In this document: in pieces, positions 3,276-23,635 of the stretch
How positions within the stretch are numbered: position 1 is the stretch's first letter
Layout of the letters: every line of letters starts with the position of its first letter
NCBI GenBank assembly: GCA_044229975.1
Contig: JBGARZ010000006.1
Location: 480,001 to 544,000, forward strand
DNA: 64,000 nt
Direction of reading: 5' to 3'
Source of the DNA: Polyangiales bacterium
GTDB taxonomy: Bacteria > Myxococcota_A > Polyangia > Polyangiales > Ga0077539
Position numbers and translations under genes: made by a program
Notes under the pieces: model-generated
What the model was told of the DNA's origin: nothing
Database searches by the model: none
The model's input: only the letters and a program-made list of their open reading frames with translations

Positions 3276-5774
3276 ATGCGCTTCAAGCACCTGGGTTCCG
3301 TCGCGCTCCTCCTCGGGTGCGCCCCGGTCGCCGTCCCTGGTCCCGTGGGCCCCGATGGGGGCGCGGTCGACGTCACGACCGTCATCGACTCGGGCGCCAC
3401 AGACGACGTCACGACCACCATCGACTCGGGCCCCCCGGACACCGTCACGACCGTCGACGTTCCCGCCGCGACGGACCTCTCGACGACCGATGCGCCCGCG
3501 ACGGATGTGCCTCTCGCGGTCGATGTACCGGCCGCCGTCGATGCGCCCGCGGACGTTCCCGCCACGCCGTGTACGTCGTCGCGCATGTGCCCGGGTCAGG
3601 TCTGCGACGTCGTCGCCGGGCGCTGCGTCGACTGCCTCAGCACGGTCGACTGCACGGGGACGGACGTCTGCCGCGGCAACCGGTGTGTCCCGCCGCCGCG
3701 CGCGTGCCGATCGTCCCGCGAGTGCTCCGACCTCGACCAGGTCTGCCACCCCACGCGCAACGTCTGCGTCCAGTGCGCCGGGGACAACGACTGCCCCGGC
3801 GGTTTCTGCGCGCCCGACGACGCGTGCCAGCCGCGGGTGTGTACGCCCGACGAGCGCACCTGCGTCGACGCTGCGCGGGTGAGGGCCTGCGACGCGCGCG
3901 GATCGGCCGTCACCGAGACGGCGTGCGCGACGACCGAGACGTGCAGCGGCGGCCGGTGCCTCCCGCGGGTGTGTACGCCCGGCGCGGCGGACTGCGCCTC
4001 CGATGGCATGCGCCGCACCTGCAACGCCGACGGCCTCGCCTACACCACGGCGACGTGTCCCGGCGCGCAGGTGTGCGTCGGCGGCGCGTGCCAGGAGGGC
4101 TGCGCGGGCGGCCTCCTGCGCTGCGGAGCGACCTGCGTCGACCCGCGCGGCGACGCGGCGAACTGCGGCGGTTGTGGCGTGCGCTGCGGGTCCGGCGAGG
4201 TGTGCGCCGCGGGGCGGGAGGGCTGCATGGCGGCGTGCGTTCCGGCGACGACCACGACCGCGATCACGGGGACGACGCTGAGCGCGCGGCTGCCCGCGGG
4301 TCTCGCCGCACGAGCGACGGACACTTCGGGAACGGGCCGCGGCGTCGCGGGCGAGGACGCCACGACGGGGGTTGCGTGGCTCATCGGGCGCACCGGGCCG
4401 GTGACGAGCGCCGACCTCGCGGAGGCGGTGATTCGCATCGAGGGCCCCATCACGCAGCTCAGCACGGCGCGCTCCCTGCTGGCGGGGGAGCGCGTTCGGC
4501 TCGCCGATGGGGAGGAGGCCATGCACGAGCGCATCGTGACGACGTGCACCTCCGCGACGGCGCTGCGCGACCGCATCGCGACGTCCCTCGCGCTGCCCGC
4601 GCCGGGCGGCTCGGCGGTGGGCGCCGGGTCGGAGTGCGTGGTGGAGTTCGCCGTCACGCGCCGGGCGAGCGGCGAGGTCCTCGTCGCCCTCGCGGTCGCC
4701 CAGCGAACCGACTGGAACACCTCCGAAGCCACGGCGCGGCGCCTGCGCGACCTGACGGTGTTCGGTCTCCCACAGTCGACGGCGATGCCCGCGGCGGTGT
4801 GCGCGACGCTGCGCGCCGAAGCGACGGCTCCGGTCGACATCGTGTGGTTTCAGGACACGTCGGCCTCGCTCGCGACCTACCAGACGCGCGTGGCACGGGC
4901 GGCGCCGGCCTTCATCGACGGCCTGACCAGTGCGGGTGTCTTCGCCCGCGTGGCGGTGATGCAGGCGAGCTACGTCGCGCACAACCTCGACGCGCCGGGT
5001 CTCAGCTGGGTAGGCGCCTCGGTGACCAACGCGGCCTACTACCTCTGCGACCGGCTGACGGCGTCGGGCCAGGCGACCTGCCCGCTGATGACCGCGGGCT
5101 TCACGGACATCGCCAGCCCGTACCCCAACAGCGGCGCCGGGGTGACGACCAACGAGGAGCCCATCGCGGCGTCCATCGTCGACTTCACCACGCTCATCAA
5201 CCGCGCGACCGCGGGCGAGACCAACGTCGATCGCCGGGTGCGCGCGGGCGCCCGCCGCGTGGCCATCGGGCTCACCGACGAGCCCGGCTCCAACGACTAC
5301 ACGCGCTACTTCCAGTCGGGCGCGGCGCCCGATACGGGCTCCGCCTGGGGCAACCCCTGGAGCGCCGCGACGCTCGCCAACATCGCCGCGTGGTTTGCGC
5401 GCAACAACGTGCTGCCGTTCGGGTTGTACCCGCACACCACCACGCGCTGCGGCGCCAGCGTCGTCGACCTCCCGCGCTGCACCGCGAGCGCGGCCGGCGG
5501 CGCCTACGCCGACCTCGTCACCACGACCGACGCCGACATCGAGGCCGCCATGGCCGCCTTCGCCGCGACCATCGCCGCCGACGTCGCCACGCTGCGCCTC
5601 ACCTCCGTCCCCGTGGGCGGGCTCGCGCGCGTGACGCTGCGCGGGGTCGTGGTGCCCCGCTCGCGCGTCGACGGCTACGACATCGACCCGGCGCGCCGCG
5701 CGCTGGTGTTTCGTGGACCGACGTACCGCCCCGCCGCGGGCGACGCGGTGACCGTCACGTACCCCGCCTGGTGA
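3276..5774 (+). CDS. Cys-rich surface lipoprotein with C-terminal vWA-like domain
   Basis: Lipobox LLLGC; D/T/V/P stalk; many CxPG..C repeats; PVDIVWFQDTSAS (MIDAS DxSxS) and LTDE. Confidence 0.8.
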   Translation: MRFKHLGSVALLLGCAPVAVPGPVGPDGGAVDVTTVIDSGATDDVTTTIDSGPPDTVTTVDVPAATDLSTTDAPATDVPLAVDVPAAVDAPADVPATPCTSSRMCPGQVCDVVAGRCVDCLSTVDCTGTDVCRGNRCVPPPRACRSSRECSDLDQVCHPTRNVCVQCAGDNDCPGGFCAPDDACQPRVCTPDERTCVDAARVRACDARGSAVTETACATTETCSGGRCLPRVCTPGAADCASDGMRRTCNADGLAYTTATCPGAQVCVGGACQEGCAGGLLRCGATCVDPRGDAANCGGCGVRCGSGEVCAAGREGCMAACVPATTTTAITGTTLSARLPAGLAARATDTSGTGRGVAGEDATTGVAWLIGRTGPVTSADLAEAVIRIEGPITQLSTARSLLAGERVRLADGEEAMHERIVTTCTSATALRDRIATSLALPAPGGSAVGAGSECVVEFAVTRRASGEVLVALAVAQRTDWNTSEATARRLRDLTVFGLPQSTAMPAAVCATLRAEATAPVDIVWFQDTSASLATYQTRVARAAPAFIDGLTSAGVFARVAVMQASYVAHNLDAPGLSWVGASVTNAAYYLCDRLTASGQATCPLMTAGFTDIASPYPNSGAGVTTNEEPIAASIVDFTTLINRATAGETNVDRRVRAGARRVAIGLTDEPGSNDYTRYFQSGAAPDTGSAWGNPWSAATLANIAAWFARNNVLPFGLYPHTTTRCGASVVDLPRCTASAAGGAYADLVTTTDADIEAAMAAFAATIAADVATLRLTSVPVGGLARVTLRGVVVPRSRVDGYDIDPARRALVFRGPTYRPAAGDAVTVTYPAW

Positions 5775-20601: not shown

Positions 20602-21258
20602 ATGAGCGCATCAACCCCCGACGACGTGTCTCCGACGACCCCCTATCGCACCGCGCAGTACGTCTGCCCGGTGGCTCCAACGGCGCCCTGGCGCGTGCTC
20701 TCGCTCGTGAGCTTCGGGCTCTCCGCGTTGGCGGTGCTGGTGACGCTGACGTCGTTCCAGCTCACCAGCTCGCTGGTGGGGATGGTGCGTATGCAGTCGG
20801 TGCAGCGGTCGGTGGTGGACCTTCGACGGCGCGCTCCTCCGCCGCCTGCTCTGGTGCAGGGTGTTCCGCCGTTGCCGCTGCCGGTGGAGGTCGCGCGGCC
20901 CTTGATGGACGGGATACGCCCCGTCGGGCGCGACGTGTACGTCGTCTCGCGCGGCGCCATCGAGGCGGCCATCAACAGCCCCGCGGCGCTGATGCGGCGC
21001 ACGACGATCTCCCCCGAGACACGCGACGGGCGCGTGGTCGGCGTGCGGGTGTTCGGCATCCAACCGGGCGACATGCTCGACAGCCTGGGCTTCGAGAACG
21101 GCGACGTGCTGCGCGCGGTCAACGGCTTCGACGTCGCGTCGCCCGACCGCTGCCTCGAAGCGTACACGCGGCTCCGATCCACCGACCGCATCGAGCTGAG
21201 CTTCGAGCGGCGCGGGCGCCTGCGTTCGCACATCTACGCCATCGTCTCCGGGGTGTGA
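20602..21258 (+). CDS. Membrane-anchored protein with a GspC-like PDZ domain
   Basis: TM helix, then GVRVFGIQPGDMLDSLGFENGDVLRAVNG...ERRG. Confidence 0.75.
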   Translation: MSASTPDDVSPTTPYRTAQYVCPVAPTAPWRVLSLVSFGLSALAVLVTLTSFQLTSSLVGMVRMQSVQRSVVDLRRRAPPPPALVQGVPPLPLPVEVARPLMDGIRPVGRDVYVVSRGAIEAAINSPAALMRRTTISPETRDGRVVGVRVFGIQPGDMLDSLGFENGDVLRAVNGFDVASPDRCLEAYTRLRSTDRIELSFERRGRLRSHIYAIVSGV

Positions 21259-21273
21259 GCCGGGCGGTTGTAC

Positions 21274-21373
21274 GAGCCCACCGTGCGCCGGAGTTCGCGT
21301 GACCCCATCGCGAGTGCGTGCAGTCGCTCACTCCGGGCTATTTCAGGTGGTCACCTCGCTGGGCGAGGTTGCA
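21274..21373 (+). repeat. Left arm of a 100-bp inverted repeat (hairpin/MITE-like element, family C)
   Basis: Reverse complement of 22990-23089 with 4 mismatches. Confidence 0.92.
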
Positions 21374-21407
21374 GCAAATCTCGGCTGACGATGAGCGAGT
21401 CGATGGC

Positions 21408-22961
21408 GTAAGCGTTCAGGCCCCAACTCCATTGGACAAGAGTTCGGGCGGGATGAGCGACGGCGCCACCACGCCGCGCAGCTTCGCGGAGATGGCGTCG
21501 CACAGGAAGGCGAAGACGCTCCGGGCATGCTGACGGCAGGTCGCCACGACGGTGAGGATGCGACCCGCGAAGACGCGCCCGGCCTCGCTGTCGCTCCCGT
21601 AGCTCGTCTTGCGCCAGATCACGCCGTGACGGATCTGCTGCTCGGCGAAGTTGTTGGTCGGCGGCACGCCCTCGTGATCGACGAAGGTCCACATCCGCTC
21701 GAACGTCTCCAGCAACTCGCCGCACGTCCCGCGGGTCTTGGGCGACGCGGTCTCGGCGCCCTCTTCGAGCAGGCGACGGAACGTTCGCTTCAGCCGCTCC
21801 ACCGAGCGCCTCAGCCAGTCCCGATCGCGGCGGCCCTGTTTCACCCAATGCCACCACGTGAAGAGCCGGTCGGTCTCTTTCGCCAGGCGCTCCCCCAGCG
21901 CCGCGTCCACGCCCCCGCGCAGGATGAACTTGGCCCAGTCGCGATCCAGGTGCGCCCAGCAGTACTGGATCCACTTCACCCCCAGCACGTCGTACGCGCT
22001 CCAGCGGTCCACCACCAGGACGCCCCGGAAGTCGATCAGCAGCTTCTTGGCCGACTCGCCCCCGCGGTCGGGGTGCACCTCGAAGAAGGTCCCCACCACC
22101 GTCGCCATCACCCACAACCAGCTCTTGCGGCGACCCCGCCACCAGCTCGTCTCGTCGGCGTGGGCCACCGGTTGCTGTCGCGCCGCCGTCTTGGCCGCCT
22201 CGACCGGCGCCTCCACGGCCTCGGAGACCCGCCGCAGCATCCGCACGATGGTGCCGACCGACATCGTGATGCCCAGCACGGTCAGGAAGAACGTCACGAC
22301 GTCGCGGTGGCTCTGCTTGAACTGCCCCACCAACGCGCCCATCAGCGCTTGCGCCCGCGGGCCCAGCATGGTCGTCGGGACGCCCGCCGGCAGGGCACCC
22401 CGGGTGCGCGCCGCGCAGCACGGGCAGGTCAGCTCGTGCATCTGGTACTCGGTGACGTGGGTGAGCTTCTGGGGGAGCTCGATCACCTGATGGCGCGTCG
22501 GCGTCGGATCCTCCCCCCGCAGGCGCTCGCCGCACGCGGCGCACGCTTCGGGCTTGCACGCCACAACGTCGTCGACCTGCTCGATCGGCAGCATCTCGCG
22601 CCGGTGCCCCTTGTGTCCGCGTTGCCCGCCCTTGGGGCGCCCGCCGCTGGGCGGCCGGGCGGGAGGGCCGTCGCCGGGGCCGTCGCTGCTGGGCGGTTTG
22701 GACGAGTTGCGCGAGGTGGTGCCCAGCCGCTCTTCGAGTTGCGCCACGCGCGCTTCGAGCAACTGCCGGTGCTCGTTGAGGTCGGCGACGTGCGCGAGCG
22801 CGATGTCCAGCAGCGACTCCAATGCGGTGTAGCGGGCGTGAACCGACGGCGGCGTGACCGCCAGATCGGCCTCGCTCACCGGCGGCAGTCGGTCGCGCCA
22901 CGACGTCACACGGCGATCGCTAGACGAACCCGGAGCTCCCCGCAACCCCCTGAACGGTTAC
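21408..22961 (-). mobile_element. IS66-family insertion sequence (single-ORF, ISBst12-like organisation), 1554 bp
   Basis: TIRs GTAAGCGTTCAGG and GTAACCGTTCAGG; perfect 8-bp TSD TCGATGGC at 21400-21407 and 22962-22969. Confidence 0.95.
21416..22909 (-). CDS. IS66 family transposase (TnpC-like)
   Basis: NSSKPPSSD, GGQRGHKG, CAACG and CPCC zinc ligands, HADET, VDRWSAY, QYCWAHL, PTNNFAEQQIR. Start uncertain (22909 GTG or 22945). Confidence 0.93.
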   Translation of the reverse strand: MTSWRDRLPPVSEADLAVTPPSVHARYTALESLLDIALAHVADLNEHRQLLEARVAQLEERLGTTSRNSSKPPSSDGPGDGPPARPPSGGRPKGGQRGHKGHRREMLPIEQVDDVVACKPEACAACGERLRGEDPTPTRHQVIELPQKLTHVTEYQMHELTCPCCAARTRGALPAGVPTTMLGPRAQALMGALVGQFKQSHRDVVTFFLTVLGITMSVGTIVRMLRRVSEAVEAPVEAAKTAARQQPVAHADETSWWRGRRKSWLWVMATVVGTFFEVHPDRGGESAKKLLIDFRGVLVVDRWSAYDVLGVKWIQYCWAHLDRDWAKFILRGGVDAALGERLAKETDRLFTWWHWVKQGRRDRDWLRRSVERLKRTFRRLLEEGAETASPKTRGTCGELLETFERMWTFVDHEGVPPTNNFAEQQIRHGVIWRKTSYGSDSEAGRVFAGRILTVVATCRQHARSVFAFLCDAISAKLRGVVAPSLIPPELLSNGVGA

Positions 22962-22989
22962 TCGATGGCTTGTTCGTTGAAACCAGTGT

Positions 22990-23089
22990 TGCAACCTCGC
23001 GCAGCGAGGTGACTACCTGAAATAGCCCGGAGTGAGCGACTGCACGCACTCGCGATGGGGTCACGCGAACTCCGGCACACGGCGGGCTC
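22990..23089 (-). repeat. Right arm of the 100-bp inverted repeat (family C)
   Basis: Reverse complement of 21274-21373. Confidence 0.92.
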
Positions 23090-23104
23090 ATACGAGCCCC
23101 GCAG

Positions 23105-23635
23105 TCAGAAGTTCACGCCCGCGCCGAACATCACGTTGAAGAAGCCCGGCACCGCTCCCCCGAGACCCACCGGGTAGAACTCGACGTTCACCGGGTCGAA
23201 GGAGAGGTGGAAGTGGTTCTGGAAGACGTACCGGACGCCGACGCCGACGCGGACGCCGAGGGCGGGTGACGCGCTGTTGCCGACGCTGGTCGCGAGGCCC
23301 ATGCCGACGCCCGCCGAGGGTGTGATGTACAGCGGGATGTTGGCGCTCACCGGGATCTCGACGCGCACGCCCGGCAGCAGCGAGAAGAGCGTGTAGCCCG
23401 CGCCAAAGCCGATATCGAGCGGAGCTTCCAGCATGATGCGCGTGGTGGAGTTGCGGGCGACGTTGTAGGCGACGCGGGCGCTCACGCGGGTCTGGGTTCC
23501 GATGGCGTCGACGATGCCGATGGACGGGCCGATGCGGAGGTCGAGGCTGGTGTCACCGAGCGTCTGCGCGGAGGCCGAGGACGAGGCGACGAGGGGGAGG
23601 GCGAGAGCGAGGACGGCGGCGGCGAGGTGCTTCAT
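23105..23635 (-). CDS. Small outer-membrane beta-barrel protein
   Basis: Signal peptide MKHLAAAVLALALP...SASAQ; amphipathic strands; C-terminal FGAGVNF beta-signal. Confidence 0.75.
   Translation of the reverse strand: MKHLAAAVLALALPLVASSSASAQTLGDTSLDLRIGPSIGIVDAIGTQTRVSARVAYNVARNSTTRIMLEAPLDIGFGAGYTLFSLLPGVRVEIPVSANIPLYITPSAGVGMGLATSVGNSASPALGVRVGVGVRYVFQNHFHLSFDPVNVEFYPVGLGGAVPGFFNVMFGAGVNF

Follow-up and report, generated by a model that had tools for sequence, protein, structure and literature searches.

The window, i.e. the whole stretch of 64,000 nucleotides that was analysed, carries between two convergent genes a long inverted repeat with an IS66-family element nested at its centre. 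The locus raises two questions: what the inverted repeat is and how it came to be there, and whether the insertion sequence was guided to it by a hairpin structure.

An IS66 element at the centre of a foldback

The inverted arms (21274-21373 and 22990-23089) differ at exactly four positions, in agreement with the original prediction, and the repeat search returned 114 nt at 92%. With the IS removed, the element measures 254 bp between its outer arm ends, and the predicted hairpin of about 256 bp held in this respect; the part conserved in the family is however only 224 bp, laid out as an 85-bp arm, a 54-bp spacer and a second 85-bp arm. The left arm core (21289-21373, minus strand), delimited by sequence, family alignment and the fold of the right arm, comprises in minus-strand order a short hairpin (21354-21368), a 13-nt linker, ATAG (21338-21341) and a long bulged hairpin. 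The right arm core (22990-23074, plus strand), delimited by sequence and fold, is composed of a short hairpin (22995-23009), a linker, ATAG (23022-23025) and a long bulged hairpin closing near 23075. The outer extensions of the arms (21274-21288, mirrored at 23075-23089) vary among copies. A 9-bp direct repeat, TACGAGCCC, is present on the plus strand at 21271-21279, where it overlaps the left arm's outer end, and at 23091-23099, and is not a family-wide target-site duplication (TSD); this repeat and the convergence of the flanking genes had both been recognised correctly. The left gene (20602-21258, plus strand) is an ORF for a GspC-like C-terminal domain protein (NF041515, 129 bits, below the cut-off of 150), and the right gene (23105-23635, minus strand) gave no Pfam or NCBIfam match.

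The IS (21408-22961, minus strand; 1,554 bp) contains a single ORF of 509 aa, counted from the first TTG (21416-22945, minus strand), which encodes an IS66 DDE transposase with matches to PF03050 (121 bits), NF033517 (301 bits, cut-off 180) and DUF6444. Elements of the IS66 family are characterised by short terminal inverted repeats starting with GTAA and by an 8-bp target duplication. Both were found in the window IS, with GTAA-type ends of 14 bp having two differences and the TSD TCGATGGC on both sides; at one of the four genomic sites of this IS the duplication matches at 7/8 positions. TSD copy 1 (21400-21407) ends the left part of the spacer (21374-21407) and copy 2 (22962-22969) begins the right part (22962-22989). 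In the empty element the 8-bp target occupies spacer positions 27-34 of 54, i.e. the symmetry axis lies inside the target, as had been proposed. The proposed pairing of the spacer centre through G-T pairs is also present, but not above chance (z of -1.7 for RNA and +0.8 for DNA, against mononucleotide shuffles).

The foldback family and its probable Y1 partner gene

A BLAST search of the genome (G000; 10 Mb, 71% GC, 39 contigs) with the IS-free element retrieved 43 loci. Of these, 38 are complete copies without an insertion, two are the halves of the window element, two are arms on contig C34, and one is a weak match to another family. The 38 further copies bear out the predicted multi-copy, non-autonomous REPIN-like element. 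The spacer is 53-55 bp long in 34 of the 39 copies, and the two arms of one copy differ at no more than three sites in 34/39 (one copy, C19:86568, was mis-parsed in this comparison and appears as an outlier of 24 differences). Between copies, arms differ by 12% and spacers by 37%, and the strictly nearest relative of an arm was its own partner in 31/39 copies. The near-identity of arms within each copy indicates that they have been homogenised copy by copy. Conservation peaks in the arm and fades within a few bases beyond the core. Exact inverted matches of at least 15 bp between the two flanks were found in 8/39 copies (0.5% in cross-copy controls), and flanking direct repeats of at least 9 bp in 7/39 (3% in controls), the latter constant neither in length nor in position. 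IS200-type insertion is not known to make direct repeats such as these.

The TA borders of the original prediction are present at the window copy, but this is the only copy of the 39 with TA on both sides, and both TA and a 9-bp duplication were rejected as family features. The spacer as a conserved hairpin was also rejected: with RNA parameters, z was below -2 in only 3/39 spacers, either strand, and no conserved spacer fold was found. When the spacer was compared, as a candidate remnant of the Y1 gene described below, with the two ends of that gene, some local alignments seemed suggestive, but the similarity is weak, with mean z values of 0.6 and 0.4, exceeding 2 in 5 and 1 of the 39. As to genomic context, 29/39 copies are located between convergent genes and none between divergent ones, against a genome background of 20% convergent pairs (P ~7e-13, gene orientation being taken from a heuristic gene caller and codon score).

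The full-length family was found only in G000 among the 41 genomes searched, and additionally in one near relative. A search for an empty orthologous site gave none, the five congener loci of the left gene (43-58% identical) not being syntenic with the right gene. One contig of sequencing run X1 lacks the IS, position 21399 being followed by 22962 (shorter side 81 letters, depth 6); it may represent an IS-free allele or a sibling copy. None of the sequencing runs contained half of the query words, and no RNA run was listed. Altogether, G000 contains 174 loci of long, closely spaced inverted repeats in approximately ten families. For some of these arm types, the matching Y1 genes were found in congeners alone, and additional conserved ends lie on the outside of several subfamilies; for further foldback families, no Y1 gene was found in the G000 assembly.

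The two arms on C34 frame a single-copy IS200-like Y1 gene encoding 146 aa, and are of the same type as, and 87% identical to, the window arm. The protein contains the motifs DHVH, WQ and YVREQPLHH, and scored over the cut-off of the IS200/IS605 model NF033573 and under that of the RAYT model NF047646 (30 bits, cut-off 80). The nearest solved structures were PDB 2xm3 and 2xma, annotated as transposase (E ~0.0009). A search for an autonomous partner among IS630 or RAYT elements had been suggested; a partner sharing the arms does exist, but it is this Y1 (HUH) gene and not an IS630. Four matches to PF01797 were obtained in the genome as a whole; arms of 94-135 nt frame each of the three strong ones, and the three Y1 arm types retrieve 14, 31 and 49 head-to-head doublets, counts in which gene-bearing units are included and the last two queries overlap. 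A weak PF01797 match (L027, G000:C26:69582-72776) lies within a large inverted tandem-repeat array of 128 inverted pairs. At L021:1277-2788, the C34 Y1 unit is preceded immediately upstream by the gene of a YifB-family AAA ATPase, which scored above the TIGR00368 cut-off, and the same neighbours are apparent in run X2. An unrelated ORF of ca. 250 aa, possible cargo, takes the place of the Y1 gene at G000:C2:174726-175925, between diverged arms of the C23:67k Y1 family.

Of 506 loci in GTDB genomes with homologues of the C34 protein, the best 80 were studied; 76 of these were scorable (at least 250 nt of flank on both sides). An inverted repeat of at least 30 nt surrounds the gene at 68 of the 76 loci, as compared with 0/71 upstream control pairs. 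The records include Planctomycetota, Verrucomicrobiota, Cyanobacteria and others, the closest among the best 80 being of myxobacterial type, and the motif Y---Q--HH was present in 78/80 and WQ in 80/80. The stem is preceded by TAG in 21, CAG in 16 and AAG in 12 of 69 arms (about one each in shuffled sequence); this xAG is directed toward the gene in 37 arms, away from it in seven and both ways in seven, with none found in 18, and in the window family the xAG foot points away. Within the taxonomic family, a Y1 homologue was identified in 28/31 genomes, with arms at 23 of 26 scorable loci.

Dispersed arm copies were present in three of the four genomes probed with their own arm: two close kin, not independent of the window lineage, gave at least 40 and at least 50 matches, and a planctomycete gave 21; the fourth genome had three, local only. 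The arm of L030 had no match in the genomes of L089 and L041, as is expected when arms are lineage-specific. In run X2, the Y1 contig of a relative has a depth of 52, its neighbour genes 43 and 48, and the arm bins 3,700-4,500; the contigs break at the arms, and thus the adjacency of Y1 and arms is implied and not directly seen. In G002, the closest Y1 is frameshifted after WQ, complementarity between its two arms is down to 76%, and a single match to the window arm was obtained in the genome. Three relatives contain two or three near-identical gene-plus-arm units at different loci (L233, L235 and L238 in G002; L151 and L152; C815 and C565 in G048), a behaviour more IS-like than that of classical RAYTs. 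At L235, the flanking 9-bp direct repeat partly overlaps the end sequence of the element.

Sister copies of the IS66 and rival explanations

There are four genomic sites of the window IS: two were assembled in full, and the other two are broken by contig ends and were paired through their duplications. Arms were found at one of the four; the other three lie in unrelated sequence without arms, two of them in DNA of 48-60% GC (window spacer region 56-62%, genome 100-bp median 72%). The copies split between C37 start and C26 end, and between C31 end and C11 end, interrupt genes which we take from their motif labels to belong to the pentapeptide-repeat and uracil-DNA-glycosylase families. A second, distant IS66 (G000:C12:6276-7869; 25-29% identity) is presumably located in an IS5-type transposase gene. 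In relatives, the IS66 copies L123, L135 and L142 (G002) and L124 (G008) have no flanking arms, and three of the four full copies in G002 lie outside foldbacks. Close metagenome copies of the IS with both ends (L241, L244-L248) had arms at none, the left flank of L241 being only 13 nt. Two insertions in relatives do involve foldbacks: L144 (G002:C35), an IS66-type element at the arm/spacer junction within a foldback of the same design (113-nt arms), and one of 18 IS66-type ends in G022, placed in the spacer of a Y1-linked foldback at distances of about 24 and 93 nt from the two arms. Both are off-axis. Structure-directed insertion at a cruciform tip, the central idea of the original prediction, is not supported: the sequence around the three sister copies is unrelated, the spacer centre pairs no better than shuffled letters do, and only the window copy has TA borders. 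The observation that had been named beforehand as refuting it was largely made, 3 of the 4 sites of this IS being unrelated and armless. The window IS66 is likely a later, opportunistic landing in a foldback spacer, and the single nested element that led to this study is the least remarkable part of the finding.

A looser relation, in which IS66 elements of this lineage would favour foldback spacers, e.g. as extruded cruciforms or as AT-richer DNA easier to attack, is rather doubtful. In its favour, three cases are known in three genomes, namely the window, L144 and the end in G022, and with the index case excluded two of ca. 22-30 sites fall in foldbacks, giving P of 0.004-0.006 at a foldback share of 0.4%, a share measured in G000 only (174 loci). 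When the null is limited to non-coding DNA (2%), however, P rises to 0.07-0.12; three of four sites in G000, three of four full copies in G002, 17 of 18 ends in G022 and all both-ended close metagenome copies lie outside foldbacks, and the three insertions occupy three different spacer positions. Other foldbacks also hold an IS4-like transposase gene and an unrelated ORF, as would be expected if the spacer were a neutral landing site. A modest bias of IS66-type elements toward foldback spacers is possible. Genomes G079 and G098 contain many IS66-type ends (20 examined in each) and provide no test of spacer targeting, since no subclass-1.2-like Y1 was found there with the C34-type query. Matches to the IS66 end motif numbered 185 in G079, 65 in G069 and 57 in G098. 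Three of the 20 ends in G079 (L297, L299, L302) are in an unrelated, imperfectly palindromic repeat of ca. 190 bp with at least 40 copies, and L352 and L355 of G022, 186 bp long and with an IS66-type end at either side, are ordinary IS66 MITEs.

The G002 foldback family in which L144 is inserted differs in its ends. It gave 84 arm matches, and its outer ends read GTAACAGTTCAG, the same 12-mer as the ends of the second IS66 in G000 (C12). Of 37 loci examined, nine with one arm off-pattern were dropped and 28 scored; IS66-type ends were present on both sides in 15/28 and a perfect 8-bp duplication in 5/28, as against 0 of 210 cross pairs, and L198, one of the dropped loci, also has an 8-bp duplication. 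Similar ends occur on the same arm family in G004 and G007, and several of the G002 ends are degenerate or tandemly repeated. In several copies (among L191-L228 and L144) the terminal ca. 50 bp are repeated in tandem, mirrored on both sides, and L221 (G002:C96:7680-9750) holds what is, to judge by a motif label, presumably an IS4-like transposase gene. The simplest reading is that the G002 sister family likely represents a hybrid MITE moved by IS66; judging by its ends and its 8-bp duplications, doublets of this kind can apparently be mobilised by a DDE enzyme.

This family also speaks for a rival view, in which the window hairpin is a classical MITE mobilised by a transposase of DDE type (IS630 at TA, or IS66) and the Y1 gene only has ancestral arms in common with it, and the extra conserved outer ends of several G000 subfamilies point the same way. 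For the window family itself such an origin is unlikely: there are no IS66-type outer ends, no constant duplication length and, save in the window, no TA on both sides as an IS630-type MITE would have, and conservation peaks within the Y1-type arm and is lost a few bases beyond it, the reverse of a DDE MITE, in which the termini are best conserved. Constant duplication and conserved termini are partly found in the G002 sister family. The strong bias toward convergent gene ends, together with arms that pair almost perfectly in either transcript, would suit a host-selected structured RNA or a bidirectional terminator spread by recombination, and a structured-RNA element had been suggested earlier. 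This we regard as very improbable, given that no Rfam match was obtained at E ≤ 1 (20900-23500, with the IS in place and the halves so separated), that no conserved spacer fold exists, and that the element is full length only in G000 of 41 genomes and one near relative, with arms framing a transposase-like gene; transcripts may plausibly be affected in a secondary way. Finally, the assembly is in 39 contigs, four IS ends coincide with contig ends, and no read or contig spanning the locus was found, which could mean that the nested structure was an artefact of joining two repeats. The same 8-mer at both junctions, the uniqueness of both flanks, and the restoration on IS removal of a spacer of family length, nearly identical to that of the C26 copy, leave this explanation a negligible likelihood.

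Proposed mechanism and comparison with known systems

The hairpin is a doublet of 85-bp arms without a gene, for which the C34 Y1 is the likely source and the likely agent of spread, with the IS66 as a likely later, opportunistic insertion in its spacer: a family of doublets together with a Y1 gene framed by the same arms marks it as REPIN-like and likely spread by that enzyme. As a caveat, the C34 arms are a sister subfamily (87%), with no exact match to the main subfamily. Also counting against it are the weak similarity of the spacers to the Y1 gene ends, the foldback families for which the G000 assembly gave no Y1, the homologue whose arm matches were local, the IS66-type ends of the G002 sister family, and the direct repeats beside some copies. 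In the proposed mechanism, the Y1 enzyme would bind the folded single-stranded arm and read the xAG tetranucleotide at the foot of the stem, as TnpA-REP of E. coli uses GTAG; the xAG foot and the WQ motif suggest by analogy a GTAG-like recognition. A nick nearby, predicted by the same analogy at CT, would then seed new copies, and template switching in fold-back synthesis, or conversion, might renew one arm on the pattern of the other; identical arms within a copy, and inverted extensions into the host flanks that differ from copy to copy, would both follow from this. That the spacer is dispensable and relatively rich in AT is the likely reason why the IS66 persisted. A wider reading, that subclass-1.2 HUH enzymes run a widespread REPIN-type system of their own with long two-hairpin arms, that IS66 lands in its spacers above chance, and that IS66 ends have capped a congener family in a hand-over from HUH to DDE enzyme, is conceivable and offered tentatively.

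Canonical IS200/IS605 ends consist of two different short subterminal hairpins, not of long inverted arms. The present system resembles IS200/IS605 TnpA (2xm3, 2xma) in the HUH motif with one tyrosine and in hairpins near the element ends, and differs in its long inverted arms, between which no tnpB was seen. From the Y---Q--HH signature the C34 enzyme would belong to TnpA-Y1 subclass 1.2 as defined by Quentin et al. 2018 (PMC6006769), with which it agrees in DH[IV]H, WQ, a length of 146 aa (ca. 148 aa in the subclass), low copy number and diverged paralogues; the same work places W94 and Q95 in the GTAG-contacting region. Table 1 of that paper gives "no" REP for subclass 1.2, whereas inverted arms were found here at 68/76 homologous loci. 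[quoted passage not shown] 2017 (PMC5581495), which presumably corresponds to subclass 1.2, has abundant flanking 16-mers and no duplicates, and the repeats themselves are not described in the available text of the paper; near-identical gene-plus-arm duplicates were, in contrast, present in three relatives. TIRtrons/TIRYT (Di Nocera et al. 2013, PMC3733652) similarly combine a tyrosine-transposase gene, long inverted repeats and dispersed dimers, but 26 TIRYTs are placed by Quentin et al. in subclasses 2.1, 2.2 and 2.5, not in 1.2. The architecture thus has precedent in the comparable cases of Bertels et al. 2017 and Di Nocera et al. 2013. A later preprint (bioRxiv 10.1101/2021.07.10.451892) still associates REPINs only with Group 2 and 3 RAYTs. 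Insertion of an IS at the symmetry axis of a palindrome is known from REP-targeting elements, cf. ISPsy8 (Tobes and Pareja 2006, PMC1525189), but these belong to IS3, IS110, IS4, IS256 and IS5, with IS66 absent from the main text, and an IS of this kind would be expected to have most of its copies in the repeat at one position, whereas here one of four copies is in the repeat and positions differ in relatives. No description of these myxobacterial foldbacks, of IS66 targeting of REPs or of an IS66-ended REPIN was found in a literature search that left most subscription journals outside its coverage, and the supplements of PMC6006769, PMC3733652 and PMC5581495 may list some of the repeats.

Neither the movement of REPINs nor their origin from IS200-like ancestors is settled in the field, and these elements are relevant to both as they look intermediate: an IS200-class enzyme, xAG-footed hairpins, gene-less doublets, and gene-plus-arm duplicates in some relatives. 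One genome offers three enzyme/arm pairs suited to in vitro specificity swaps, and the IS66-ended sister family, if confirmed, would be a route by which a new MITE arises from an unrelated repeat. The closest parallel is with REPIN/RAYT systems, i.e. TnpA-REP and BIMEs of E. coli and Groups 2 and 3 of Pseudomonas, which share a repeat-framed low-copy HUH-Y1 gene and many dispersed intergenic inverted doublets with conserved arms and variable spacer, as well as one repeat family per enzyme and an AG-ending tetranucleotide at the hairpin foot (PMC3116915, PMC8266576, bioRxiv 10.1101/2021.07.10.451892). TnpA-REP of E. coli and Stenotrophomonas cleaves single-stranded DNA at CT, with the third and the fourth base of GTAG both indispensable in Stenotrophomonas (PMC8266576). 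The arms here are 85 bp long with two hairpins, as opposed to 20-40 bp; the foot is ATAG, facing inward and preceding a long bulged stem, in place of GT[AG]G at a short hairpin; and the enzyme is of class 1 (Y---Q--HH) and not of class 2 (Y---NP), the latter motif occurring in 0/80 homologues. The system accordingly works like REPIN/RAYT, but departs from it in two features, the class of the enzyme and the GTAG foot.
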